A stretch of DNA of 64,000 nt from Candidatus Kapaibacterium sp. GTDB taxonomy: Bacteria; Bacteroidota; Ignavibacteria; Palsa-1295. The translations under genes were made by a program, and so were the position numbers. Positions within the stretch are counted from its first letter, which is position 1, and each line of letters opens with the position of its first letter. The notes beneath the pieces were generated by a model that worked only from the letters and a program-made list of their open reading frames with translations, made no database searches and was not told the origin of the DNA. Below are positions 1,207 to 50,916 of the stretch, in pieces. The DNA lies in the NCBI GenBank assembly GCA_038210275.1, contig JBBQWV010000002.1, positions 134,141 to 198,140 on the forward strand, written 5' to 3'.

Positions 1207-1821
1207 TTGAAAAATACCACTGTATATTTTATTTTTATATTAGCACTATCGATGTCAATGCCTTTATATGCGCAGGCACAAAATACAAAGCCGTTTGAGA
1301 TTTGGATTGATGGTGGCGGAGGATATTCGAGGAATATCACACGCGTAGTTCAGGCAACTGCTTCGCCCGGAGGTGATTTTACAAATGGTGGATTTACTGG
1401 ACTGCTTCGTATTCGCGGAAGCAAGAATCATTTTATCACTATAGGAATTGAAACGGGCTTTCAACGAATTTCATCGGTGACTCAGCAGAATGCTCAAGCA
1501 GTCGGGTTTGGAACAACAGATATTACTGCAACACTTTCAGCCATTCCTGTTATGGGAGTTATCACCTTGCAAGATTATAATGTGCAGCTTCATGGATCGG
1601 CAGGAGTGTATCGCCTCATCTCAAAGGCATCACTCTTTGGGAGCTCAGTTTCAAGCTCTGAATGGGATATGGCTTTTTCCATTTCTGCAGGTTACGAAAT
1701 CACCGTAAGTGGAGAATATAAAATCATCCCAGAGTTCCGTTGGTCACGCATTAACGATTTACAGAAATCTTTTCTATCGTTAATGATAAGATTAGAACTA
1801 CCATCCTGGGAGCCTTTTTGA
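1207..1821 (+). CDS. hypothetical secreted/outer-membrane beta-barrel-like protein
   Basis: N-terminal signal peptide MKNTTVYFIFILALSMSMPLYAQA. Gly/Ser/Thr-rich alternating pattern, no recognisable enzyme motif. Confidence 0.4.
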   Translation: MKNTTVYFIFILALSMSMPLYAQAQNTKPFEIWIDGGGGYSRNITRVVQATASPGGDFTNGGFTGLLRIRGSKNHFITIGIETGFQRISSVTQQNAQAVGFGTTDITATLSAIPVMGVITLQDYNVQLHGSAGVYRLISKASLFGSSVSSSEWDMAFSISAGYEITVSGEYKIIPEFRWSRINDLQKSFLSLMIRLELPSWEPF

Positions 1822-1849: not shown

Positions 1850-1961
1850 GTCATTGCGAGGAGTTGCTTGCGAACGACGTGGCAATCTAAAAACTTAAAC
1901 GTTGATTCTACATTTAATATTTTAGATTGCTTCGTCGGGCTAAAGCCTTTCTCGCAATGAC
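1850..1961. repeat. palindromic MITE/REP-like element, family A copy 1 (112 nt)
   Basis: Terminal inverted repeats GTCATTGCGAG...CTCGCAATGAC with a nested inverted repeat GCAATCTAAAA...TTTTAGATTGC. Near-identical copy at 25368..25477. Sits between convergent genes. Confidence 0.8.
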
Positions 1962-1976
1962 ATTATTATATACTAA

Positions 1977-2963
1977 TCACTTGCCGCTAGTAACAAAAAT
2001 TTCTTCTCCGATCGTCCAATTCTTCAAAGGTTCATCAATTTGAGTCATCTGCACTTTCAAGCCATCGGCAGTGCGGATAAGCTTGCAGAAATGATGTCGG
2101 CGTTCAGGACCATCGCGAAACAGGTCTTGCTTTACTGAATTCTTTTTCGGTGCTTCAAGCCGCTGGCTTGGACCTGCACCGCCGGAGACGATAAAATCTT
2201 TTCCACTGATCTTAAAATGCTCATACGAATGACAATGCCCGCTAAAGAAAAGCTTTGCTTTAGGCGTATGAATATACGAAGGAACAAAGTATTTCTGAAC
2301 ATCTTTATCGTCGTTGACAACGCTGCTATTGGTAAATGGCGGCTGATGACAACAAACGATAATTATCGCAACCGAAGAATCTGCTTGCATTTTTTTCATT
2401 TCACCTAGATACCATTTCCTCTCGTCAGTAATATCATCTTTCGATAAATTACTAAAATTCGAATTCAACGTGATGATGCCAATATCCTTCCATTTTTTTG
2501 AATACCATAGCTGCTCCTTAATCTGTGGGAAGCGAGAGAAATACTGAGTAAAGGCAACATTGTGGTTTCCGAAATACTCATGATTGCCGGGAAGCGGAAA
2601 GATCGGAATACCTTTGGTGCGTATTGGCTTTGCAAGGTCATCAAAATCCTGCCATGAGTTAAGCGAACTGCCCGGAAATGTAAAATCTCCTAAAACCAAA
2701 ACAAAGGATGGATCTTCTTCTGAGATCTTTTTTAACAAGGCACGGACAGCATTCTTATTATCTTCACGACCAATGAGAATTTCCGGTGTACCCCGAAGTT
2801 GAACATCACCGATAAAAATAAAACTGGATGCTGTATCAATGCGGGTTGGAGAGCCTGAATAGATAGGGATTTGCGAGCTTGAAAGCCCTGGGGTAAAAGA
2901 AAGTAGAACAAATAAGAGAACAGTTTTTCTCAAAATTTTTCTATAATATTTATGCCTGTTCAA
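1977..2963 (-). CDS. calcineurin-like metallophosphoesterase (secreted)
   Basis: Motifs GDVQ..G, LVLGDFTFPG, GNHEY, SGHCHSYEH are typical of the MPP superfamily. N-terminal signal peptide. Confidence 0.7.
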   Translation of the reverse strand: MNRHKYYRKILRKTVLLFVLLSFTPGLSSSQIPIYSGSPTRIDTASSFIFIGDVQLRGTPEILIGREDNKNAVRALLKKISEEDPSFVLVLGDFTFPGSSLNSWQDFDDLAKPIRTKGIPIFPLPGNHEYFGNHNVAFTQYFSRFPQIKEQLWYSKKWKDIGIITLNSNFSNLSKDDITDERKWYLGEMKKMQADSSVAIIIVCCHQPPFTNSSVVNDDKDVQKYFVPSYIHTPKAKLFFSGHCHSYEHFKISGKDFIVSGGAGPSQRLEAPKKNSVKQDLFRDGPERRHHFCKLIRTADGLKVQMTQIDEPLKNWTIGEEIFVTSGK

Positions 2964-3183: not shown

Positions 3184-4310
3184 TAATTCTCAGTGCCAAG
3201 TAGAATTTCAACTGGCTTTTGGTTCGGAGCCAAATTCGCAATACTCACCTGCTGCGCCATTGCCTGTGCAATGTCTCTGAATGAATGCGCTGCCTGCGTC
3301 TCCGGACCGCTAACGACGATAGGCGAACCATCATCGCTTCCGACACGAACCGATGTCTCAAGAGGTAGCTCACCCAAGAAAGGTACTCCGAATTCGGTCG
3401 CTGCTTTCGCCGCTCCGCCATGCGAAAAGATTTCTTCGCGATGATGACAAGCCGAGCAAATAAAATAACTCATGTTCTCGATGATTCCAAGAACAGGCAC
3501 GTGTACTTTCTCGAACATACGAACTGCTTTCCGTGCATCAGCAAGAGCCACATCTTGCGGAGTAGTGACAATCACTGCTCCGGTAAGAGGAATAGTTTGC
3601 ACAAGAGTAAGCTGAATATCCCCTGTTCCGGGAGGAAGATCAAAGATCAGATAATCGAGTTCACCCCAAAGCACATCCGACATAAATTGCTTCAATGCAC
3701 CTGATGCCATGGGACCGCGCCATACGACTGCGGTATTTGGATCAACGAGGAATCCAATCGACATCACCTTCACTCCGTGCGCTTCAAGAGGGATCATCAT
3801 CGCATGACCATTCACTTGTTGTGCCTCAGGTTTTGAATATTCCAAGCCGAACATTAGTGGAATGCTCGGGCCATAAATATCGGCATCAAGTAACCCGACC
3901 TTCGCCCCATCTTTTGCGAGTGCAACAGCGAGATTCGCTGCAACGGTTGACTTCCCTACTCCACCTTTGCCGGAAGCAACAGCGATGGTGTTCCGAACAC
4001 CTAAAAGTGCAGTCGGTTTATTTACCCCTTGCTGCATTGCCACGTTCGATGTCATCGCAACTTTTACATTACCTTCACCGGCAATTTTTTCTACTGTAGT
4101 CCGCGCTTCGAGTTCAAGTTTATCTTTGAGCGGGCATGAGGGTGTAGTAAGTTCAAATGTAAAAGATACTTGATCGCCTGCAATCTTTATATTCTTTATC
4201 ATCCCAAGCGAGACGACATCTTTATGAAGATCGGGGTCAATGACGGCGCGAAGAGCATCAAGCACTTCCGCTTCAGTAAGAGTAGAACTATTTTTTGAAA
4301 AGAATCCCAT
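3183..4310 (-). CDS. apbC: Fe-S cluster carrier ATPase Mrp/ApbC (N-terminal DUF59 plus ParA-type P-loop)
   Basis: Walker A SGKGGVGKSTVAANLA, CxxC near C-terminus (CSAC), N-terminal MIP18/DUF59-like domain. Adjacent to the Nfu gene. Confidence 0.85.
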   Translation of the reverse strand: MGFFSKNSSTLTEAEVLDALRAVIDPDLHKDVVSLGMIKNIKIAGDQVSFTFELTTPSCPLKDKLELEARTTVEKIAGEGNVKVAMTSNVAMQQGVNKPTALLGVRNTIAVASGKGGVGKSTVAANLAVALAKDGAKVGLLDADIYGPSIPLMFGLEYSKPEAQQVNGHAMMIPLEAHGVKVMSIGFLVDPNTAVVWRGPMASGALKQFMSDVLWGELDYLIFDLPPGTGDIQLTLVQTIPLTGAVIVTTPQDVALADARKAVRMFEKVHVPVLGIIENMSYFICSACHHREEIFSHGGAAKAATEFGVPFLGELPLETSVRVGSDDGSPIVVSGPETQAAHSFRDIAQAMAQQVSIANLAPNQKPVEILLGTEN

Positions 4311-4368
4311 TGAAATTTATTTTATGTGGCGCTAAAACAGAATGAGAGGAGCATGGGTTCGGATTCCT

Positions 4369-5058
4369 CTACTCTCTGGCATTATGCGCCACAATGCTAT
4401 CGGCAAATGCATGGATTTCGCGCTTTAATGCGGGCGTCAGGTATTTCGCATTTTTTGATTGCATTTTATTAATGTAACCTGCAATATCATCCGTTGGTAT
4501 ATTATTTTGAGAGATGCTATTAACCCAATATTTGAATGACCATTTATATTGCGGCATTCGGAGCTTCTGATAAAATTCATCAACGAATTGCATACTGTAA
4601 TGTACAGCATATGATGGCAGCAGTTCGGGATCAGTAGCCCAAGGCTCACCAAGTCGATAAAATCTCAGAAAGAGAAAATAATAGAATGGACGTGTCGTAT
4701 CGTTTTGCGTAAGAAGACTATCACATAAATAGTAGGTCTCCGAATTATCAACGCTCGGAATAAATCGAAGCAAATAAAAATTCTTGGCAGTTTGCGATAC
4801 ATCACTTCTATTGAGGTAAAATGAAACCGGTCTACCTTCGATAAGAGAATCCGATAGAGGAAATATTTTCCTCATCTCATCGCTTATACCGACGCTATCA
4901 GTATTCACTTTACCTGTATCAAGTTCACTAAGCGGCACATCCTGATCCGTCCACCGAGCGCTATCGGGCATGAACAGCTTCTTCTTTCCGCCGCCGCAGC
5001 TTTCCATCACCGTTAACAGGATAATAAGTGTATAAATAATTAGAGTAGCTCTATTCAT
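4369..5058 (-). CDS. hypothetical lipoprotein
   Basis: Signal peptide plus lipobox (LTVMESCGGG). No recognised catalytic motifs. Confidence 0.4.
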   Translation of the reverse strand: MNRATLIIYTLIILLTVMESCGGGKKKLFMPDSARWTDQDVPLSELDTGKVNTDSVGISDEMRKIFPLSDSLIEGRPVSFYLNRSDVSQTAKNFYLLRFIPSVDNSETYYLCDSLLTQNDTTRPFYYFLFLRFYRLGEPWATDPELLPSYAVHYSMQFVDEFYQKLRMPQYKWSFKYWVNSISQNNIPTDDIAGYINKMQSKNAKYLTPALKREIHAFADSIVAHNARE

Positions 5059-5132: not shown

Positions 5133-6760
5133 ATGCTCAGGAATGTGGTTTTGGTCATCGCCTTCATGGTTGCAGTTCTCTCAACTGCAAGCGATCTATG
5201 TGCGCAATTATTAATCGTGCCTCCCGCTCGGTTATCGCCTGATAATTTTTTCGATGCCGAAGGAGTATCAATCGTCATCAATCCTTCCAATTCGTCTCAG
5301 ATTGCTGCGGGATCAAACGTAAATTATTATTATTTCTCGACCGACTTAGGACATTCATGGCAAGCGAATGCTTTGAATCCCACGTTCGGTGATGGTGGTG
5401 ATCCCTCGCTTACCTCCGATTCAAAAGGAAATTTCTATTATGCACATCTATCCAGCGAAGTTAATGGCGTAGGATATAATCAAGATAGGATCGTTATTCA
5501 GAAATCAACAGATGGGGGAAAAACATATTCACCCGGGACATTCACCGGACATGACCGTTCTCCAAAACAGCAATTCAAGGAATGGATCACTTGCGATAAT
5601 TCATCTTCCACGCCATACAAAGATAATCTTTATCTTTCTTGGACAGAGTTTGATTCTTATCAAAGTCATTTTCCGCAATTTGATAGCACGAGAATTCTTT
5701 TCTCGGGTTCAACCGATGCAGGCGAAACATGGTCTGATGCCGTGACTGTAAGCGATAAAGAAGGTGATACCATTGATAGCACCAACTCCGTTAATGGCTC
5801 AAGATGTATCACCGGTCCTAACGGCGAAATTTATGTTACGTGGGAAGGACCCGACGGATTGCTATTCGATAAATCAACCGACGGCGGAAAATCTTTTACA
5901 AAAGATAAACTCCTTGAGCAACTTGTGCCGGGCTGGAGGTTTGATATCAAGGGTATTTATCGCGCCAATGGATTTGCTACTCCGCTTTGTGATAACGGTA
6001 ATTCGAAACATCGCGGAAATCTTTATGTACTTTTTTCCGATAAACGCAACGGACCGGATGATTGTGATATTTTTCTGCTTCGCTCAACGAATGGCGGTGA
6101 TTCATGGAGTTCACCTGTTCGTGTGAATGACGATACGTCGCATCTCGAACAATTTTTTCCATCAGCAGCGATTGACGAAACTACCGGATTCATCTATGCA
6201 GTCTTTTATGATCGCAGGGATCATAAAGGTACGAATCTCACAGAAGTATATCTTGCCAGATCTATTGATGGGGGCAGAGTTTTCAAAATTTCAGATTACA
6301 TTCAGCTCCTTTCAATCCAAACAACAAGATTTACATCGGTGATTATACTCATATCGCTGCCCATAATACATTAGTCTATCCGACTTGGACGGACATACAT
6401 ACAAATAACGATGGAGTATCTTATTCTGAAAGTATTTGGATATGCAGAGTTATTGATACCGGCGCGTTTAATTTAGATGTCCCGACTCCGATGGATAGGA
6501 AGCAATCTTTCTCCTTACACGTCGTTCCAAATCCTGCACGATCGGAGATTCAAATCCAATTCAGTCATCCGCTCGAAAGGAATTCTTCCATTCAAATAAC
6601 CGACGTAGTAGGAAGAACTCTCGTAAACAGCATTGAAGGAGAGTACGACAATAAAGACAGAATTACTTATGATATAAGCAACCTTCCAAGCGGCATCTAC
6701 TATTGTTTAGTACAATACGGAACAGAGCACGCCATTCAAAAAATAATCGTGTCACATTAA
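5133..6760 (+). pseudogene. BNR/Asp-box repeat (sialidase-like) T9SS cargo protein, frameshifted at a G5 tract (frames 5133..6374 and about 6269..6760)
   Basis: The upstream frame carries at least four S.D.G.(T/S)(W/F) BNR motifs (STDGGKTY, STDAGETW, STDGGKSF, STNGGDSW). It reads ...ARSIDGG then runs out of frame. The other frame continues ...QSFQNFRLHSAPFNPNNKIYIGDYTHIAAHN... and ends in a T9SS C-terminal domain (GIYYCLVQYGTEHAIQKIIVSH). Joining them at GGGGG (about 6270..6274) recreates a perfect SIDGGQSF BNR motif. Confidence 0.55.
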
Positions 6761-6774
6761 GAGAATTTAAACTT

Positions 6775-6829
6775 AAAAGTCAAAGATCAAAACGTGATTT
6801 CTATTTTTGACTTTTAGCTTTTGACTTTT
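6775..6829. terminator. A/T-rich inverted repeat (AAAAGTCAAAG...CTTTGACTTTT) between convergent genes; terminator-like, overlapping the last codons of the minus-strand CDS
   Basis: About 10-bp arms with flanking A/T runs. Located between the stop of the 5133..6760 gene and the stop of 6801..7256. Confidence 0.4.
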
Positions 6830-7256
6830 GAATTCTCTTAATGCTTTTTCCCATCCGTTCTTTATATTCTTTCGGAGGGTATTCAACCTTTGCCATCTCC
6901 TTCACAAATTTCTCGGCAATATCAAGCGGCATCTGTACTACGTCCTTAAAATTAATGCAGCCCTTTTGGAATTTTGCTTTTGGCATAAGCTTTTCGAATT
7001 TCTCGCGCAAGCCGCTTCCACCAAAACCTTTTGAACTGCCATACATTACCATCGAATGGAATGACATGTGCTCCTTCACCGAGGAAAGTGCATACTTCAT
7101 GATATCGCCTTGCATATACATAAGCATTTCCTTCCCCATCATACTGCTCACGACTTCTTTAACAAGCGGGTCAGATTTTAAAATAAGCTCGCGCAATTTG
7201 GATAAGATCGCCTTGCGATCTTCGGGCAGAGAATCAAGATATTCTTTAGGTGTCAT
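6801..7256 (-). CDS. hypothetical protein, DUF1801 (YdhG-like) resemblance
   Basis: N-terminus MTPKEYLDSLPEDRKAILSKLRELI resembles DUF1801 proteins. Lys-rich C-terminus is encoded partly by the hairpin repeat. Confidence 0.35.
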   Translation of the reverse strand: MTPKEYLDSLPEDRKAILSKLRELILKSDPLVKEVVSSMMGKEMLMYMQGDIMKYALSSVKEHMSFHSMVMYGSSKGFGGSGLREKFEKLMPKAKFQKGCINFKDVVQMPLDIAEKFVKEMAKVEYPPKEYKERMGKSIKRIQKSKAKSQK

Positions 7257-8766: not shown

Positions 8767-8887
8767 AGTATTTTTAGCAAATGTTTACCATACAAAGATA
8801 CGTCAGAAATCCAAAAATTGTACCAATCAGACAAGGTCAAATACTATTGCCCTATTTCTCATTTAGAATTTCATCTGTGGATACAGC

Positions 8888-11848
8888 TTACCCCACCTGT
8901 ATCTTCAATTTCTCCATCTGCACCCTAAAGCTCTCGAGTTTTTCCTTTTCTTTGATAATGATATGCTCCGGAGCACGGCTGACGAAGTTGTCATCGCTGA
9001 GTTTTGCGTTTAGACTTTCGTATTGCTTTACAATGCGCTCAAGCTCTTTGCGGAGACGGTCTTTTTCTTTCTTGGTATCTTCTTCGCTTTGCGCTTCCTG
9101 TTTAATAAAGATCTGGCCTCTTCCGGCAAGTAATTCAGCAGCATACTCTTTTGAGGACAGCTCTCTCATTGTGTCATTGCGAGGAATCTGCGCAGCAGAC
9201 GACGCGGCAATCTCAAAATTCTCGGTACTATTAGACATTTTAGATTGCTTCGCTGCGCTCGCAATGACGTCCCCAAATGTGTCTTGTTCGATTATGAGTG
9301 ATGAAGCTTTACATATCTTTTCAATGATATTTCGCGAAGCTTCTGTGAGAATTAAATCTTCTTGAGTCTTCAAACGAATAATAAACTCTGCCGACTTGCT
9401 CGGAACAAGTTTTGCATTCGCACGCAAGAGTCTTGCGGCTTCAATAATTTTTTGTATAAAAGCGAATTCCTCTTCCGCTTCATCATCTATCTTTCCTTCA
9501 TCGGCTGTGATGTAGTCATCTCTGCCAATAAGCATATTTTCCGGATTACCCGTTAAGCCATGCCAAAGCTCTTCGGTGACAAATGGCATGATTGGATGGA
9601 TCATTCGGAGAATGCCTTCGAGAATTTCCACAGCAAGCGGAGTTGATTCGGGCTGTAGCTTTACGATCTCCAAATACCAATCGCAATAATCTTTCCAGAT
9701 GAAATCGTAAAGGTATTTTGTAACGTCATTAATGAGATAGGCGTCGAAAGCTTTCTTCACATCTCGCGCAGTTCTATTCGCACGAGAGAGAATCCATTTA
9801 TCAGCGAGGGTAGACGGTGGTTTTGCAGAGAAGCCAGCCTTCTCCAGTGGGACGGACTTTAGTCCATCCGTCTCACGGACTGAAGTCCGTGCCACTGAAT
9901 TGTTATATTCTGTATCTTCAGATTCAAACTTCGGCTCGGGATGAGTTGATTGATATTCATCACGCTTCATTAATATAAAGCGTGTTGCATTATATAATTT
10001 ATTTGCAAAATTCCTGCCTTGTTCACAGCTTTCTTCTCCGAAACGAACATCTTGTCCGAGCGGTGCCAGATAGAGCAATGTAAAACGAACAGCATCCGTA
10101 CCATATTTACGAACGAGATCAATCGGATCGGGCGAGTTGCCGAGCGACTTACTCATTTTCCTTCCCTGCTGGTCACGCAAGATATTATGGAAATACACAT
10201 CGGTGAAAGGAATCAGATCTTCTAACTTTTCACGTTTCGAACCATCGGGCATCTCCATACCTTGCATGAATTCGATGCCGCCCATGATCATTCGCGCAAC
10301 CCAGAAGAAAATAATATCGGGCGCAGTTGAAAGCAGATTGCCGGGATAAAATAATTGCAGATCTTTTGTATTCTCTGGCCAACCGAATGTCGCAAAGGGC
10401 CAGAGCCACGATGAGAACCATGTATCAACGACATCGGGATCTTGACGGAGTTCGCCTTTGTATCCAGCGGCATCGGCTTTAGCTCTTGCTTCGGCATCAT
10501 TACGTCCGACAAATATTTCTCCATCAACTCCATACCAAGCTGGAATGCGCTGCCCCCACCAAAGCTGGCGTGAGATACACCAATCACGAATCCCTGTCAT
10601 CCAATGACGATAGGTATTGATCCAGCGTTCTGGATGAAAATGAATAAGTCCATCTTCAACAACTTTTAGTGCAGGCTCGGCAAGCGGCTTCATCGAAACG
10701 AACCACTGATCAGATAGATATGGCTCGATCATCTCGCCGCCGCGTTCAGAATAGCCTACAGAATGAGTATATTCATCAATCTTCTCAATAAGCCCCATCT
10801 CTTCCAATTCCGCAACGATCTTCTTTCGTGCAACAAAGCGGTCCAGTCCTGCAAATTTTCCACCGAGTTCGTTGATATGGGCTTTTGTATCCATGACATT
10901 GATTTGTGGCAAATCATGTCGCTTTCCGATCTCGAAATCGTTTGGGTCATGGGCAGGAGTAATCTTCACACATCCTGTTCCAAATTCTTTATCGACGTAG
11001 TCATCGGCAATGATCGGGATTTCCCTATCCATAAATGGAAGCTGAAGTTTTCTGCCGATGAGTTTTATGTATCGTTCATCAGTAGGATTGACAGCAACGG
11101 CAACGTCGCCAAGCATTGTCTCAGGGCGCGTTGTTGCAATGACAATAAATTCTGGTTCGCCGGATTTCCTATCGATAAGCGGATAACGGAAATGATAAAG
11201 CTTGCCTTTCGTCTCTTTGTAATTTACTTCTTCGTCGCTAAGAGCAGACTGTGCAACAGGGGACCAATTAATGATACGCTTGCCTTTATAGATCAGCCCT
11301 TTTTCATAAAGTCTGACAAATGCTTCAACGACAGCTTTCTCATAGCTCGCATCCATCGTGAAAGTGAAACGGCGCCAATCTGGTGAGCAGCCGAGAGCAC
11401 GAAGTTGCTTCTCTATAAAATCAGAATGCTCATGCTTCCACTTCCAAACTTCGTCAATAAATTTTTCACGACCCAAATCGTGACGAGTCTTTCCCTCTTC
11501 TTTTAATTTCTTCTCAACTTTCGTCTGCGTTGCAATTCCCGCATGATCGGTGCCCGGCATCCACAGGGCTTCATGCCCAAGCATCCGGTGATAGCGGATA
11601 TAGGTATCCTGAATGGCATTATTGAGCGCATGACCCATGTGCAGAATGCCCGTCACATTCGGCGGCGGCATACAGACTACGAATGGCGGCTTGTCATTGG
11701 CGCGGCGTCCGGTGGGGTCCTGCGGTACTTCATCGGGGCGATTGGCTTCAAAAAGCTTCTCCGCTTCCCAACGCTCGTACCACTGCTGTTCAACATCCTG
11801 CGGCGCATACGCCTTCGGTAATTCCCTTTTCTCTATTTCTGACATCAA
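8888..11848 (-). CDS. valS: valine--tRNA ligase (986 aa)
   Basis: Class I HIGH (ILHMGHALNN) and KMSKS motifs. Editing and anticodon-binding regions align with E. coli ValRS (…NKLYNATRFILM…DKWIL…CDWYLE). C-terminal coiled coil. Confidence 0.95.
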   Translation of the reverse strand: MMSEIEKRELPKAYAPQDVEQQWYERWEAEKLFEANRPDEVPQDPTGRRANDKPPFVVCMPPPNVTGILHMGHALNNAIQDTYIRYHRMLGHEALWMPGTDHAGIATQTKVEKKLKEEGKTRHDLGREKFIDEVWKWKHEHSDFIEKQLRALGCSPDWRRFTFTMDASYEKAVVEAFVRLYEKGLIYKGKRIINWSPVAQSALSDEEVNYKETKGKLYHFRYPLIDRKSGEPEFIVIATTRPETMLGDVAVAVNPTDERYIKLIGRKLQLPFMDREIPIIADDYVDKEFGTGCVKITPAHDPNDFEIGKRHDLPQINVMDTKAHINELGGKFAGLDRFVARKKIVAELEEMGLIEKIDEYTHSVGYSERGGEMIEPYLSDQWFVSMKPLAEPALKVVEDGLIHFHPERWINTYRHWMTGIRDWCISRQLWWGQRIPAWYGVDGEIFVGRNDAEARAKADAAGYKGELRQDPDVVDTWFSSWLWPFATFGWPENTKDLQLFYPGNLLSTAPDIIFFWVARMIMGGIEFMQGMEMPDGSKREKLEDLIPFTDVYFHNILRDQQGRKMSKSLGNSPDPIDLVRKYGTDAVRFTLLYLAPLGQDVRFGEESCEQGRNFANKLYNATRFILMKRDEYQSTHPEPKFESEDTEYNNSVARTSVRETDGLKSVPLEKAGFSAKPPSTLADKWILSRANRTARDVKKAFDAYLINDVTKYLYDFIWKDYCDWYLEIVKLQPESTPLAVEILEGILRMIHPIMPFVTEELWHGLTGNPENMLIGRDDYITADEGKIDDEAEEEFAFIQKIIEAARLLRANAKLVPSKSAEFIIRLKTQEDLILTEASRNIIEKICKASSLIIEQDTFGDVIASAAKQSKMSNSTENFEIAASSAAQIPRNDTMRELSSKEYAAELLAGRGQIFIKQEAQSEEDTKKEKDRLRKELERIVKQYESLNAKLSDDNFVSRAPEHIIIKEKEKLESFRVQMEKLKIQVG
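9173..9268. repeat. family A palindromic element, copy 2, 96 nt, inside the valS ORF and in frame
   Basis: GTCATTGCGAGG...GGCAATCTCAAAA...TTTTAGATTGC...CTCGCAATGAC. Length 96 is 32 codons with no stop in the valS frame. Encodes ...DVIASAAKQSKMSNSTENFEIAASSAAQIPRNDTM... just before the ValRS C-terminal coiled coil. Confidence 0.75.
9845..9897. repeat. family B palindromic element, copy 1, inside the valS ORF
   Basis: CAGTGGGACGGACTTTAGTCC..ACGGACTGAAGTCCGTGCCACTG. Matches the B copies flanking lexA. Encodes ...SVARTSVRETDGLKSVPLEKAGF... within a segment absent from E. coli ValRS at the equivalent position. Confidence 0.65.
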
Positions 11849-22443: not shown

Positions 22444-22507
22444 CAAGTCAAAAGTCAAAACTTCAAAATAAAATGAGACTCCTCTTATTCTTGACTTGTA
22501 TTTTTTT
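22444..22507 (+). terminator. hairpin CAAGTCAA-N40-TTGACTTG followed by a T8 run, in a 420-nt intergenic region
   Basis: 8-bp stem and long loop followed by TATTTTTTT on the plus strand. There is no annotated plus-strand gene upstream, so it may be a stand-alone small transcript. Confidence 0.3.
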
Positions 22508-24065: not shown

Positions 24066-24091
24066 ACGGACGGACTAAAGTCCGTCCCACT
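24066..24091. repeat. family B palindromic element, half copy
   Basis: ACGGACGGACTAAAGTCCGTCCCACT, in the divergent promoter region between the BNR gene and lexA. Confidence 0.6.
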
Positions 24092-24212
24092 CACAATACC
24101 AAACTTCGAGAGTCACGCAAAACTTCGACTTATCTCCCAACCCTAAAAATTTCGGATTTTACGCGGAGGCGAAAAAGATTGCTTATATTAGTACGTGCTC
24201 TTATGGGCACCT

Positions 24213-24238
24213 ATGCTATGAGAAATGCCGCTCATAGC
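24213..24238 (+). promoter_or_regulatory. inverted repeat TGCTATGAG-N8-CTCATAGCA about 50 bp upstream of lexA; candidate LexA operator (autoregulation)
   Basis: Perfect 9-bp inverted repeat with an 8-bp spacer, located where SOS boxes are usually found. The motif differs from the E. coli (CTGT-N8-ACAG) and Cheo-box consensus, so the assignment is inference only. Confidence 0.3.
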
Positions 24239-24284
24239 ACATAATAAGGCATCTAAATGATTGATCTATAGAAAGATAACGACG

Positions 24285-24959
24285 ATGTACGCAGAACCAA
24301 AATACGATACTATCGCAATCCGTGATTCCCTTCCGCTCCAACAGGCGAGGGTGCTCGACTATGTCGAGGAGTTCATTGACATCTCCGGCTACCCCCCGAC
24401 CATAGCCGAAATAACCGAATTTCTGGGAGTCTCTTCGACCTTCGGAGTTCGCAAACATATCGAAGCGCTGACCAAAAAAGGCTTCATCGTTCGCGGCGGT
24501 CCCGGACTCTCGCGTTCGATCATGGTGGCGAATAATCACCGCGCAAACTCGGTACCGATCGTCGGCAGAGTCACAGCCGGTGCGCCCATCCTTGCCGTTG
24601 AGCATATCGAAGGCTGGCTGGCATTTCAGCCTATCAAAGATCCACGCAAAATGTTTGCGCTTAAAGTGCAGGGCGAAAGCATGAAGGATAAAGGCATCAT
24701 GGATGGCGACTACGTGATCTGCCGCCAACAGGATGAAGCATCGAACGGCGAGATCATCGTTGCCTTGCTTGATGACTCGGCAACAGTAAAAACTTTCCGC
24801 AAGTACGGCAAGCGTTACGAACTCGAACCGGCGAACGAGCTATTCAAGCCCATCCCCATTACCGAAGACAGCGGCTTCAAAGTGCTTGGGAAAGTTACGA
24901 GCATCTATCGTATGATAGATGATAGGAAGCCGGGGCTATTGCAATTGAAGTATAACTAA
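24285..24959 (+). CDS. lexA: LexA repressor (S24 peptidase)
   Basis: N-terminal winged helix (LPLQQARVLDYVEEFIDISGYPPTIAEI), cleavage region and S24 catalytic domain with VQGESMKD (Ser nucleophile) and the downstream Lys motif. ATG at 24285, 24 nt downstream of the TTG of ORF 24261, is the more plausible start. Confidence 0.85.
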   Translation: MYAEPKYDTIAIRDSLPLQQARVLDYVEEFIDISGYPPTIAEITEFLGVSSTFGVRKHIEALTKKGFIVRGGPGLSRSIMVANNHRANSVPIVGRVTAGAPILAVEHIEGWLAFQPIKDPRKMFALKVQGESMKDKGIMDGDYVICRQQDEASNGEIIVALLDDSATVKTFRKYGKRYELEPANELFKPIPITEDSGFKVLGKVTSIYRMIDDRKPGLLQLKYN

Positions 24960-24965
24960 TTTCTG

Positions 24966-25015
24966 TAGTGGGGCGGACTTCAGTCCGTCCGAACGGACTA
25001 AAGTCCGTTCCACTA
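24966..25015. repeat. family B palindromic element, full copy, 6 nt downstream of the lexA stop
   Basis: TAGTGGGGCGGACTTCAGTCCGTCCGAACGGACTAAAGTCCGTCCCACTA. The two ACGGACT.AAGTCCGT hairpin units lie within a larger palindrome. Confidence 0.7.
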
Positions 25016-25058
25016 CTACCAGAAATAACAAAACAATTTTAGAATAATCAGAACAACC

Positions 25059-25340
25059 ATGCAAACATTAACCACTACACTTCAAGCGCCGCGCAGAGCA
25101 GAAGTTTATACTGCACCAATGCCGCAGCAGAAGGAAATACAAGTTGCCGAAGAGCAGGAGCTATCAGTTCGGCAGATCAGCCATTATATCGGCAAAACAA
25201 AATTCTGCGAGACGGGATACAGCACGACCACCTACGGCAGGATCGGCTTCACCAAAGTCGAAGCTGAGCACGTAACAGCAGATACGCTATTGCAAGCGAG
25301 ATTGGATATATTGTGTGATAAGCTTCGCGCACGCTATTAA
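25059..25340 (+). CDS. hypothetical small protein (93 aa) co-oriented downstream of lexA
   Basis: ORF between repeat B3 and repeat A3. No recognisable domain. Coding status unverified. Confidence 0.3.
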   Translation: MQTLTTTLQAPRRAEVYTAPMPQQKEIQVAEEQELSVRQISHYIGKTKFCETGYSTTTYGRIGFTKVEAEHVTADTLLQARLDILCDKLRARY

Positions 25341-25367
25341 CGTGCATCGTGAAGACTTTAAAACAAT

Positions 25368-25477
25368 GTCATCGCGAAGAGGGCGCAGCCAGACGTGGCG
25401 ATCTAAAAATTTGAGGGCGTGTGTAACGATTAAGATTTTAGATTGCCACGAAAGGCTAAAGCCTTTCTCGCAATGAC
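25368..25477. repeat. family A palindromic element, copy 3 (110 nt)
   Basis: Termini identical to copy 1 and a shared GGC(A/G)ATCTAAAAA...ATTTTAGATTGC core. Between convergent genes. Confidence 0.8.
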
Positions 25478-25520
25478 ATTCATAAAAGAATATTCATCCA
25501 TCCGCCTTCATCCTTACCCG

Positions 25521-26108
25521 TTAGTGTTTATGTACGGTGCTAATATAATGATACTGTGGCTCCCAGTCGTCACTTGCCGATGGCAACAGATCGAAGAGAT
25601 GCCAGATGGAGCAGTAATCATCTCCGGGACCGAAGAAATCTTTCGTAACGTGCGTGATCGTGCCATCCGCTTCTTTTCTGAATATCGAAACGCCGGGCAT
25701 CGGATCGTCTTTTTCATTTGCAAATCCCATGTCGCGTTTGAAGGTTGTGCCTTCAGTTGAATACATTCTGAAATTCCATCCGCGCTCCATCGCAAATTTT
25801 CTCTGTATCTCATAGTTATCCGGTGAAGTGAGAACAAATGCCATTCGGCTTTCGAGATGCTTCGTAAAACCGATAAATCCATCAGCCCAAAGTGTACAGT
25901 AGCGGCATGATCTTCCCATGTTATGCACGAGCATCAGTTCGTTCGATGAGCCGAACATCTCCGAGAGCATTGTCTTCTCGCCGGATGATCCTGTGAAGGA
26001 ATAATCTTTTACCGTTTCAGCAGGAATTTTACGGCGCACTTCTGCGACCTTTGCGCGAAGCTTCATTAAGTCATCACTAAGTTGGAAGAGTTCTTGTTCG
26101 GCTGTCAT
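25521..26108 (-). CDS. DUF899-family thioredoxin-like protein
   Basis: GRSCRYCTLWADG CxxC region and the overall 195-aa architecture are typical of DUF899. Confidence 0.5.
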   Translation of the reverse strand: MTAEQELFQLSDDLMKLRAKVAEVRRKIPAETVKDYSFTGSSGEKTMLSEMFGSSNELMLVHNMGRSCRYCTLWADGFIGFTKHLESRMAFVLTSPDNYEIQRKFAMERGWNFRMYSTEGTTFKRDMGFANEKDDPMPGVSIFRKEADGTITHVTKDFFGPGDDYCSIWHLFDLLPSASDDWEPQYHYISTVHKH

Positions 26109-47033: not shown

Positions 47034-47056
47034 TGTTTGTTTTGTGTTACTTTCAT

Positions 47057-47094
47057 GTCATCGCGAGGAGTCCGCCGCGGCGAATTGCAATGAC
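47057..47094. repeat. family A-related short hairpin (terminal repeats only) between nuoE and nuoF
   Basis: GTCATCGCGAGGAGTCCGCCGCGGCGAATTGCAATGAC shares both A-family termini but lacks the internal region. Confidence 0.5.
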
Positions 47095-47104
47095 ACTATA
47101 AAAT

Positions 47105-49930: not shown

Positions 49931-50019
49931 CTTGATAAAAAAGCTAAAAGCTAGAAGCTAAAAGCTAAAAAAAATAGATCGTTGGGCGTCAAACTTTTAG
50001 CTTTTGGCTTCTAGCTCTT
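49931..50019. repeat. long A/T-rich inverted repeat (about 30-bp arms of AGCTAAAAGCT-type units) between tRNA-Trp and secE
   Basis: AAAAGCTAAAAGCTAGAAGCTAAAAGCTAAAA ... TTTTAGCTTTTGGCTTCTAGCTCTTCGCTTTT. Could form a stem of about 30 bp in the minus-strand transcript. Confidence 0.55.
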
Positions 50020-50032
50020 CGCTTTTGTATCG

Positions 50033-50105
50033 CACGTCAGGAGGGAATTGAACCCCCAACCAACGGTTTTGGAGACCGCTACTCTACCAATTGAGCTACT
50101 GACGT
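50033..50105 (-). tRNA. tRNA-Trp (anticodon CCA)
   Basis: Minus-strand sequence ...AGCTCAATTGGTAGAGT.GCGGTCTCCAAAACCGT..GGGGGTTCAATTCCC... Cloverleaf with CCA anticodon. No encoded 3' CCA. Confidence 0.8.
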
Positions 50106-50142
50106 GTCTGAAAGCTGACAGCAACCGCTGGCAGCCTACAGC

Positions 50143-50292
50143 TTATTTGGTCTCTTTGTGGATCTGACGCTTTCTGCAGCGCGAGCAAAACTTCTTGTAC
50201 TCCACACGTCCTGATTGCTTGCGCTTGTTTTTGGTCGCAGAGTAGTTACGCTCTTTGCACTCAGTACATTCTAACGTTATAATGTCTCTCAT
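50143..50292 (-). CDS. rpmG: 50S ribosomal protein L33 (zinc-ribbon type; below the 60-aa ORF-track cutoff)
   Basis: Translation [49 protein letters not shown] closely resembles Bacillus-type L33 ([24 protein letters not shown]...KKYCPRC..HT.HKE.K). AGGA Shine-Dalgarno sequence 8 nt upstream. Confidence 0.85.
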
Positions 50293-50355
50293 TGTCGTAT
50301 TCCTTTCGTAAAAAAAATCTTTGGTAGAGACGCACCATGGCGCGTCTCTACGTAG

Positions 50356-50428
50356 AGCGGGAGACGAGACTCGAACTCGCGACCAACAGCTTGGAAGGCT
50401 GTGACTCTACCAACTGAGTTACTCCCGC
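50356..50428 (-). tRNA. tRNA-Gly (anticodon TCC)
   Basis: Minus strand GCGGGAGTAACTCAGTTGGTAGAGTCACAGCCTTCCAAGCTGTTGGTCGCGAGTTCGAGTCTCGTCTCCCGC. Anticodon loop CTTCCAA. Confidence 0.8.
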
Positions 50429-50507
50429 AAAAACAAACTTAAACTTTAATGCTTAAAAAACTTCTTCCCCATTTCAGCATTAAACTTTCGAGGCGTAGCC
50501 TCGGCAG

Positions 50508-50580
50508 AGCTCACGATCGGGATTGAACCGACGACCTCGTCCTTACCAAGGACGTGCTCTACCAACTGAGCTACGTGAGC
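50508..50580 (-). tRNA. tRNA-Thr (anticodon GGT)
   Basis: Minus strand GCTCACGTAGCTCAGTTGGTAGAGCACGTCCTTGGTAAGGACGAGGTCGTCGGTTCAATCCCGATCGTGAGC. Confidence 0.8.
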
Positions 50581-50586
50581 GACTTG

Positions 50587-50650
50587 GCAAGGATGAAGGA
50601 TGAATGATGAATGATGATTTTTTTTTCATCTTTCATCCTTCATCCTTCAT
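50587..50650. repeat. hairpin built from tandem heptamers (GGATGAA/TGATGAA)n with a T9 loop between tRNA-Tyr and tRNA-Thr
   Basis: GGCAAGGATGAAGGATGAATGATGAATGATGATTTTTTTTTCATCTTTCATCCTTCATCCTTCATCCTTGCC. Near-perfect arms of about 20 bp. Confidence 0.7.
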
Positions 50651-50657
50651 CCTTGCC

Positions 50658-50740
50658 CACGAAGTGGGCAGAGAAGGACTCGAACCTTCGTAGACGTAAG
50701 TCAGCAGATTTACAGTCTGCCCTCGTTGACCGCTTGAGTA
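50658..50740 (-). tRNA. tRNA-Tyr (anticodon GTA, long variable arm)
   Basis: Minus strand GGGCAGATACTCAAGCGGTCAACGAGGGCAGACTGTAAATCTGCTGACTTACGTCTACGAAGGTTCGAGTCCTTCTCTGCCCA. Confidence 0.8.
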
Positions 50741-50843
50741 TCTGCCCATGTTAGCTTCAAAAATAAACTTAAAGCTAAAAAACAAATCCATATCATTTTT
50801 TTACGCTCTTCCCTATCAAACCCATGAGACAAAAGCCTCAATG

Positions 50844-50916
50844 AGCCGGCAGACGGACTCGAACCGACGACCTGCTGATTACAAATCAGCTGCTCTACCA
50901 ACTGAGCTATGCCGGC
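50844..50916 (-). tRNA. tRNA-Thr (anticodon TGT)
   Basis: Minus strand GCCGGCATAGCTCAGTTGGTAGAGCAGCTGATTTGTAATCAGCAGGTCGTCGGTTCGAGTCCGTCTGCCGGC. Confidence 0.8.

Follow-up and report, generated by a model that had tools for sequence, protein, structure and literature searches.

Two families of dispersed hairpin repeats most likely copied in frame into valS on a Kapaibacteriaceae chromosome

The valS gene, which encodes valine--tRNA ligase (ValRS), is located here on a 64-kb stretch of contig JBBQWV010000002.1 from Candidatus Kapaibacterium sp. (hereafter the window, which designates the whole stretch analysed and is also the genome coverage on which copy counts in this organism are based). 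Two segments of its coding sequence belong to families of palindromic repeats that also occur in non-coding positions of the window, and we regard it as highly probable that these two dispersed hairpin families, herein designated A and B, were copied in frame into the chromosomal valS gene of this Kapaibacteriaceae bacterium, a member of the Bacteroidota according to NCBI. The family A insert lies ahead of the C-terminal coiled coil of the enzyme and is absent from all orthologues, whereas the family B doublet occupies a linker in which different hairpin-forming segments are found from one related genome to the next.

Results

An intact valS gene carries copies of two repeat families

The first-pass annotation of this DNA, made from the letters alone, had described valS as one uninterrupted open reading frame (ORF) despite the presence of the two repeats, and this description was confirmed [Table 1]. 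The product aligns with Thermus thermophilus ValRS (1GAX; E=2e-204), scores 1146 bits against the NCBIfam ValRS equivalog NF004349 (cutoff 704), and contains both the HMGH and KMSKS motifs. Its Pfam layout (tRNA-synt_1, 22-603; Anticodon_1, 683-822; Val_tRNA-synt_C, 924-982) comprises the class Ia catalytic core, the anticodon-binding domain and the C-terminal coiled coil, all in a protein scoring above the equivalog cutoff. The closest homologues come from metagenome-assembled genomes (MAGs) of 'Candidatus Kapaibacterium'/Kapabacteria and 'Ignavibacteriae', with identities not exceeding 80-84%. The rest of the window is ordinary chromosome encoding NusG, five tRNA genes, nuoE/F-like genes, a Trp/Tyr-class synthetase and lexA.

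The copy of family A found in valS is bounded by 11-nt termini forming perfect inverted repeats (GTCATTGCGAG / CTCGCAATGAC), carries the inner arms GGCAATCT.AAAA / TTTTAGATTGC, and can be aligned from end to end with two copies located between genes, at 1850-1961 and at 25368-25477. When nhmmer was run with a profile of these two intergenic copies alone, the valS copy was retrieved as the sole additional full-length match in the window (E=1.3e-11 on the plus strand; 7.5e-5 on the minus strand), and a profile of 132 metagenome copies, independent of the window, returned it as the top match in the window (E=4.6e-13). The window thus holds three full copies of family A, 96-113 nt in size (about 85-113 nt for the family overall), and one short derivative; one copy is genic and the others are intergenic. 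What chiefly sets the valS copy apart from the intergenic ones is a pair of deletions, one of 7 nt within the loop and one of 11 nt that takes out a side hairpin. The earlier suggestion that intergenic copies carry stops and that the valS copy was trimmed to keep its frame was borne out in part: these two deletions are present and, in the frame equivalent to that of valS, a stop interrupts the loop of the copy at 1850, while a long open segment in the VIA frame is found in neither intergenic copy. Read on the minus strand, the valS element encodes VIASAAKQSKMSNSTENFEIAASSAAQIPRND (aa 861-892). Stop codons are absent from four of its six frames, and an antisense ORF of 194 aa (8781-9365, plus strand) stays open through it, an example of the spurious ORF calls that A-type elements produce.

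The unit of family B is a palindrome of about 25 nt, (A)GTGG.ACGGACT..AGTCCGT, that occurs singly or as an inverted doublet. Two other loci match the doublet in valS, namely the doublet at 24967-25014 and, at 96% over 26 nt (E=3e-7), the singlet at 24067-24091. That two segments of valS copy repeats found elsewhere in the window, as first proposed, therefore stands for both families with strong alignment statistics at the nucleotide level. Of the five B units present in the window, two belong to valS; L010, the closest relative, has a single, intergenic unit, and 1.7 Mb of other loci contained no unit, a distribution from which family B appears to be young and lineage-restricted. We note that the lexA-like gene (24261-24959; LexA_DNA_bind and Peptidase_S24) has B units on both sides; downstream of it lies a 93-aa ORF without Pfam family and then an A copy, which makes three elements in 1.4 kb (24067-25478).

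Every A and B copy in the window folds as a long hairpin, with DNA z-scores of -4.6 to -9.2 relative to shuffled controls; those of the family B singlet and doublets range from -5 to -9. Folding of the sense mRNA gave -35.1 kcal/mol for the A copy of valS and -32.5 kcal/mol for its B copy.

The inserts are lineage-specific and lie between domains

Comparison of the window ValRS with 35 orthologues (50-84% identity) revealed that the A-site segment (aa 857-892, TFGD followed by VIASAAKQSKMSNSTENFEIAASSAAQIPRND) is confined to the window protein. At the DNA level, the two relatives aligned over this site, L001 and L002, display a clean gap of 108 nt, so that the A-site indel amounts to 36 codons made up of the 96-nt element and 12 further nucleotides. 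The initial description of the A copy held for its exact length of 96 nt, its termini and its inner arms; measured against orthologues, however, the indel is 36 aa long and not 32. Its assignment to the linker ahead of the coiled coil was correct, the insert falling between Anticodon_1 and Val_tRNA-synt_C. The A insert is private to this genome and probably reflects a recent event. The same peptides encoded by unrelated DNA were not seen in distant orthologues; ancestral peptides with an accidental DNA similarity were rejected as an explanation on account of the absence of the A segment from all orthologues and of its full-length DNA match (E=1e-11).

The B doublet resides in a linker delimited by the conserved blocks ...FESEDTE-x-N and TLADKWILS, which is 53 aa long in the window ValRS, about 12 aa long in Thermus and short in Ignavibacteria outside the clade. 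Within this linker, expanded throughout the clade, B takes the place of a hypervariable core of about 11 aa. The segment is thus lineage-variable, as proposed from the sequence, without being the clean addition that had been supposed.

Both segments are located in gaps between Pfam domains. With the 36-sequence alignment as input, AlphaFold2 produced a model (mean predicted local distance difference test [pLDDT] score, 81) in which the only internal regions with pLDDT values below 50 are residues 637-677 and 859-894, corresponding to the linker with B and to the A insert, in line with the expectation that a structure model would place them in loops or linkers. The model thus suggests that both inserts occupy disordered inter-domain loops that are probably surface-exposed. 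From the alignment and from what is known of class Ia enzymes and 1GAX, we take the 637-677 loop to mark the entry to the anticodon-binding helical bundle, and residues 859-894 to be a flexible tether preceding the coiled-coil arm, which extends to the elbow of the tRNA.

Hairpin types in the ValRS linker differ between sister genomes

The valS DNA of 17 genomes of the clade was compared. A hairpin-forming segment was found in the linker of 10 of the 17, and at least six types, A to F, could be distinguished [Table 1]; types A, B, D, E and F were met again among homologues known as protein only, and the linker of protein P0006 contains a B-like peptide. Nine clade linkers were folded; seven of them yielded hairpin z-scores of -3.5 to -10, and the values were weaker for L006 (-2.4) and L005 (-1.9). 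In a neighbour-joining tree of the catalytic core, linker type differs between sister genomes. Thus, the valS DNAs of L015 (type A) and L013 (type E) are 90-97% identical over most of their 5' two-thirds, whereas identity falls to 32% in the linker, and a similar drop at the linker separates the sisters L001 (type A) and L011 (type B).

A third permissive site was found in the valS gene of L015, where a type C hairpin, CCCCTCTCCTTGGTAAGGAGAGGGGAGTTGAGG, is inserted in frame in the connective peptide 1 (CP1)/editing region (aa ~217-236, nt ~820-880). This hairpin is missing from the sister genome L013 and from L004, and the corresponding peptide is also present in P0053. Type C is otherwise represented by the linker of L006. 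An orthologous copy of type F is found in the valS linker of L031, together with one partial copy elsewhere in L031.

Frame breaks in the valS genes of L031 and L012 were considered as out-of-frame insertions of such elements and rejected, since they proved to be a simple indel and a string of N. Two further observations were made on this set. The final ~450 nt of the L015 valS gene are only about 40% identical to those of L013 and L004, compared to 83-97% for the remainder of the gene, which may indicate recombination or an assembly chimera. The ValRS homologue P0019 (1179 aa) has an N-terminal extension of 230 aa (~2-231) consisting of tandem VIPAKAGIH...MDPRLRGDD repeats, predicted to be another repeat family upstream of valS that was read through by the gene caller; back-translation suggests that these repeats, too, may end in GTCAT...ATGAC.

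Family A belongs to a superfamily abundant in metagenomes

Metagenome contigs were scanned for exact occurrences of both 11-nt termini at a spacing of 60-90 nt, and at least 120 stretches with family A termini were retrieved. The termini are kept across very different contigs of both high and low GC content. Among the matches listed were 132 copies of 82-112 nt, and 97% of the copies folded among these matches had z-scores below -3 (median, -6.7). No direct repeat of 3-9 nt was found above expectation at the borders of 135 copies, arguing against target-site duplication, and the flanks of these 135 copies extend the terminal inverted repeat by one Y/R pair only. Arm complementarity, examined by a mirrored test in 128 metagenome copies, revealed asymmetric arms with an internal loop, for which covariation is not scorable in this manner.

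For eighteen copies among the matches listed, an open frame runs through the element and continues for 60 codons or more to either side, many of these frames being GC-rich and spurious; insertion in frame in a real gene was verified with Pfam for 5 of the 132 [Table 1]. Two of these five, in L184 and L124, lie at domain junctions and may fuse neighbouring genes; the terminal ATGAC of the L124 element provides the Met of MTYDVLIVGAG on the Pyr_redox_2 side. Two arrangements of A-type copies are mentioned for themselves. L108 contains, at 3908-4975, 8.8 tandem copies (97% identical) of a 121-nt unit consisting of an 88-nt A-type element and a constant 33-nt spacer. In L095, inverted A-type copies at 900-981 and 4425-4506, whose flanks are mutually inverted, enclose 3.4 kb; a composite transposon was rejected because no transposase lies inside, and the arrangement resembles an extensive duplication in inverted orientation, or else an artefact of assembly.

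A search of a 5.8-billion-protein set with a profile of the A peptide, insensitive for queries of 40 aa, scored 10 candidates, all of them tiny ORFs. The A consensus had no match in a plasmid BLAST search, for which the query is too short given the size of the database, and the terminal 11-mers and typical encoded peptides retrieved only unrelated primers and words from literature text. The A-type superfamily is abundant in metagenomes, and no description of it was found in the searchable literature. Peptides encoded by the elements (VIASEAKQS..., ...PRND, ...LAMT) recur in predicted ORFs at the copies and can mimic gene fusions.

Other hairpins in the window

Two long, near-perfect hairpins of a type unrelated to A and B are present at 49934-50031 (AAAAGCTAAAAGC...) and 50586-50657 (GGATGAAGGATGAATGA...); the first lies just beyond one end of a group of five tRNA genes (50033-50916, minus strand) and the second between two of these genes. 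A palindrome at 6755-6843 (AAAAGTCAAAG.../...CTTTTGACTTTT) overlaps the 3' end of a DUF1801 gene (6801-7256, minus strand), the product of which has a C-terminal tail, ...KSKAKSQK, that is apparently encoded by the repeat; related arms are found at 22445-22473.

Table 1. Positions of valS and of repeat copies in the window, occupants of the ValRS linker in related genomes, and in-frame A-type copies from metagenomes
Feature	Position or genome	Strand	Size and remarks
valS, valine--tRNA ligase	8888..11848	-	986 aa; intact host gene, uninterrupted ORF
Family A palindromic element in valS	9173..9268	+	96 nt; same orientation as intergenic copies; nhmmer E=1.3e-11 (+), 7.5e-5 (-)
Extra 12 nt (TFGD) beside the A element	9269..9280	-	likewise missing from orthologues
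Intergenic family A copy	1850..1962	+	about 112-113 nt; genes 1207-1821 (+) and 1977-2963 (-) converge on it with their 3' ends
Intergenic family A copy	25368..25478	+	about 110-111 nt; genes 25059-25340 (+) and 25521-26108 (-) converge on it with their 3' ends
Short family A derivative, termini only	47056..47096	+	41 nt, intergenic; nhmmer E=0.004
Family B inverted doublet (REPIN-like) in valS	9845..9897	.	53 nt; encodes (S)VARTSVRETDGLKSVPL, aa ~651-668
Family B single unit	24067..24091	.	upstream of lexA-like gene
Intergenic family B doublet	24967..25014	.	directly downstream of lexA-like gene
ValRS inter-domain linker with B	9818..9940	-	aa 637-677, pLDDT <50; recurrent hairpin segments in clade
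Linker, family A-type element	L001, L010, L004, L015		108, 93, 83 and 83 nt, respectively
Linker, family B	window valS		53-nt doublet
Linker, decayed B	L011		TCAGTGGCACGGACT in common with window
Linker, type C	L006		CCCCCTCTC...GAGAGGG+GGGGTGAGG hairpin
Linker, type D	L005		GCGAGTGGCGAG... inverted repeat
Linker, type E	L013		ATAGTGGATAGT... palindrome
Linker, type F	L016, L031		CCCCCGCCTT... hairpin
Plain linker without hairpin	L007, L008, L009, L014, L018, L019		78-84 nt
Pfam-verified in-frame A-type copy			in S-adenosylmethionine (SAM)-dependent methyltransferase domain
Pfam-verified in-frame A-type copy			in NTPase_1 domain
Pfam-verified in-frame A-type copy			in PFL-like (pyruvate formate-lyase-like) domain
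Pfam-verified in-frame A-type copy	L184:1661-1751		class I lysyl-tRNA synthetase / B3_4 junction
Pfam-verified in-frame A-type copy	L124:1688-1780		DAO (FAD-dependent oxidoreductase)+BFD / Pyr_redox_2 junction

Discussion

A proposed route into valS

The explanation we favor for these findings is the copying of family A and B elements into valS. Insertion is probably blind to reading frame, and purifying selection on an essential gene would leave only those copies that are in frame, free of stops and located in permissive loops. The surviving copies would then be transcribed and translated, adding loop residues to an otherwise normal ValRS. The lack of target-site duplication and the hairpin architecture make an enzyme recognizing hairpins or single-stranded DNA (ssDNA), of the kind associated with repetitive extragenic palindromic (REP) sequences (REP-associated tyrosine transposases, RAYT) or with IS200, likelier than a DDE transposase, and we propose that the elements are copied in trans by such an enzyme. 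In the linker that joins the catalytic body to the anticodon-binding helical bundle, hairpins of different types would have replaced one another repeatedly, a re-use that may reflect either the targeting of a resident hairpin or a selection filter.

A number of points weigh against this explanation. A mobilizing enzyme was not identified: no transposase domain was detected among the 38 window ORFs scanned, and no Y1_Tnp domain in the 64 kb. The 12-nt TFGD stretch next to the A element is extra to its 96 nt and may represent either an extended end of the element or a rearrangement at the junction. Second copies of types D and E were not found in the flanking sequence examined, and types C and F have one further occurrence each, so that there are weaker grounds for calling these four types mobile than there are in the case of A and B. 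Finally, it is from sequence that we infer the mobility of the elements, the manner of their copying, the translation of the inserts and their functional neutrality.

A bolder version of the same explanation, which we put forward tentatively and consider rather unlikely, is that the valS linker is an actively targeted landing pad to which unrelated hairpin families home within the same few nucleotides, each newcomer replacing its predecessor and probably recognizing the hairpin already in place, whether as such or as ssDNA. The superfamily ending in GTCAT...ATGAC would then constitute a widespread, undescribed group of protein-coding palindromes, possibly mobilized in the manner of types 4, 6 and 7 of the Rickettsia palindromic elements (RPEs). 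If this were true, selfish DNA would be continually rewriting a protein linker.

Alternative explanations

Recurrent occupation of one linker could also result from a single palindrome inserted in an ancestor of the clade, of which types A to F and the 'empty' variants would be diverged descendants. The left boundary of the linker elements is indeed constant to ~3 nt in all genomes, directly after the Asn codon of ..DTE-x-N (AAT|), the elements take the place of the variable core and are not additions to it, and a precedent has been argued for RPE-4/6/7 (PMC3767692). An ancient insertion nevertheless appears improbable in view of the unrelated elements borne by sister genomes whose valS DNAs are 90-97% identical, the identity of A and B with copies elsewhere in the genome, and the restriction to this genome of the A insert preceding the coiled coil. 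L010 and L004 are members of two deep subclades, and their valS genes share 69% identity overall and 45% at third-codon positions. The left arm of their linker elements is identical over 29 of 29 nt and starts at the same junction (AAT|GTCAT), but their loops are unrelated; an arm so well preserved in a gene so diverged argues for independent insertions of members of one family rather than for one ancient event.

It is likewise improbable that the hairpins were domesticated because their RNA or DNA structure is useful, whether as a translational pause aiding co-translational folding, in the stabilization of the mRNA or in attenuation. In keeping with such a role, strong sense-RNA hairpins (-35 and -32 kcal/mol) are kept in valS, seven of the nine folded linkers have z-scores of -3.5 to -10, and both sites coincide exactly with domain boundaries. 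Stems are, moreover, conserved above synonymous sites: the elements of L004 and L015 are identical at 79 of 83 positions, most differences falling in the loop, compared to an identity of 0.62 at third positions of the gene. Recent insertion accounts equally well for this conservation, however, and domestication sits poorly with the absence of the linker hairpin from 6 of the 17 clade genomes and of the A-site hairpin from every orthologue, with occupants unrelated in sequence and size, and with the presence of the same families in ordinary intergenic positions.

Repeats are a classic source of assembly errors and the best valS match is only 84% identical, leaving room in principle for a metagenome mis-assembly having placed the repeats in valS, or for valS being a decaying paralogue. 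We consider an artefact of either kind very improbable. The valS sequence is collinear and in one frame on either side of both inserts, with no stop, its catalytic motifs and equivalog score are intact, and the same phenomenon recurs in assemblies that other studies produced independently (L001, L004, L010, L015, L016/L031 and P0036).

Removal of the inserts by mRNA excision or ribosome bypass, as for the yeast mitochondrial 'byp' palindromes or T4 gene 60, would fit the stable RNA hairpins in the coding sequence but is scarcely credible, given that the inserts are in frame and stop-free, unlike the intergenic A copy with a stop in the equivalent frame, and that orthologous coding copies vary by in-frame indels (15 nt between the A-type copies of L001 and L010), a pattern of frame, stop codons and indels expected only if the ribosome reads the inserts.

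Significance

Copying of mobile hairpins into valS, if it occurred as we propose, would mean that 'protein-coding palindromes', long a Rickettsia curiosity, also shape essential enzymes in free-living Bacteroidota. The clade represents a natural experiment in this respect, offering one gene with three permissive sites, at least six hairpin types and swaps between near-identical genomes, in which the targeting of a site or structure may be tested against a selection filter, as may the way in which selfish DNA makes new protein linkers.

Comparison with known systems

Small MITEs (miniature transposable elements with inverted repeats) within bacterial genes, including ERIC, BOX and the MITEs of Anabaena and Coxiella, were reportedly described by Delihas in 2007. 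Family A resembles them in its small size and terminal inverted repeats, and MITEs occasionally fuse in frame with host ORFs. It differs from them by the lack of target-site duplication in 135 copies, and no known parent insertion sequence has matching ends. According to a 2024 review, in-frame MITE fusions are 'not unusual', RPEs being the extreme case (PMC10969869).

Family B is closer to REP sequences and to the doublets known as REPINs. It shares with them an imperfect palindrome of ~25 nt, singlets together with inverted doublets that form one long hairpin, restriction to a lineage, the lack of target-site duplication and intergenic copies adjoining gene ends. REPs are extragenic by definition and, like REPINs, reportedly owe their mobility to RAYT enzymes (Nunvar 2010; Bertels and Rainey 2011). 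A RAYT (Y1 transposase) gene in the genome and tens to hundreds of copies are characteristic of REP families; no RAYT gene was found in the 64 kb of the window. Family B departs from this definition in that one of its doublets lies inside the essential valS gene, the other two window loci and the L010 copy being extragenic. No family matching A or B was found in Rfam.

Yeast mitochondrial byps and T4 gene 60 are translationally bypassed. The valS inserts resemble byps, and also the coding palindromes found in mitochondria of Nematomorpha, in being inverted repeats that form hairpins within essential genes; both of these systems are organellar and bear no sequence relationship to the inserts, and byps differ further in being bypassed rather than translated. 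In Nematomorpha, hairpin-forming inverted repeats of this kind lie in essential protein-coding genes (PMC6649704).

The closest parallel is provided by the RPEs, dispersed palindromes of ~70-190 bp found in both intergenic and genic positions, as is family A. These elements (RPE-1 to RPE-7 and others) were reportedly described by Ogata et al. in 2000 and 2002. As with RPEs, the valS insert preserves the reading frame of an intact gene and is missing from orthologues outside the lineage, and its modelled position, inter-domain with pLDDT <50, would suit a loop peptide. RPE-4/6/7 palindromes include ATGAC, with which family A ends. Further likenesses extend to the type of host gene and to the occupation of one site by different types. 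The peptides encoded by RPEs have been reported to lie in surface loops of housekeeping proteins, with different types sometimes found at one orthologous site, and the in-frame, lineage-specific and inter-domain character of the low-pLDDT valS segments bears out the likeness to RPEs drawn in the first-pass annotation (Matsutani et al. 2013, PMC3767692). The annotation was mistaken in suggesting that aminoacyl-tRNA synthetases had no such precedent, since RPE-7 lies in the isoleucyl-tRNA synthetase and the beta subunit of the phenylalanyl-tRNA synthetase (ileS and pheT) of Rickettsia (PMC3767692).

The two situations differ in their hosts, a free-living Bacteroidota lineage here and Rickettsiales in the case of RPEs. 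The peptides encoded by A and B in all open frames had no match at E<=10 in NCBIfam, whose content of RPE models was not confirmed, and homology to published elements was not found either, in a comparison that did not extend to direct alignment with RPE consensus DNA. The behavior of A and B would thus be of a kind already known from RPEs, while membership in an RPE family is not supported by these comparisons. Whereas RPE-4/6/7 have been traced to one insertion and its divergence in place, under the name 'extended RPE-4' (PMC3767692), turnover in the Kapaibacteriaceae involves clearly unrelated families and near-identical sister genomes, and therefore favors repeated insertion over divergence in place. 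What is added here is the presence of two unrelated families in one essential gene, a site of turnover shared by a whole clade, and a widespread superfamily, of which no description was found, that lies repeatedly in frame in genes.

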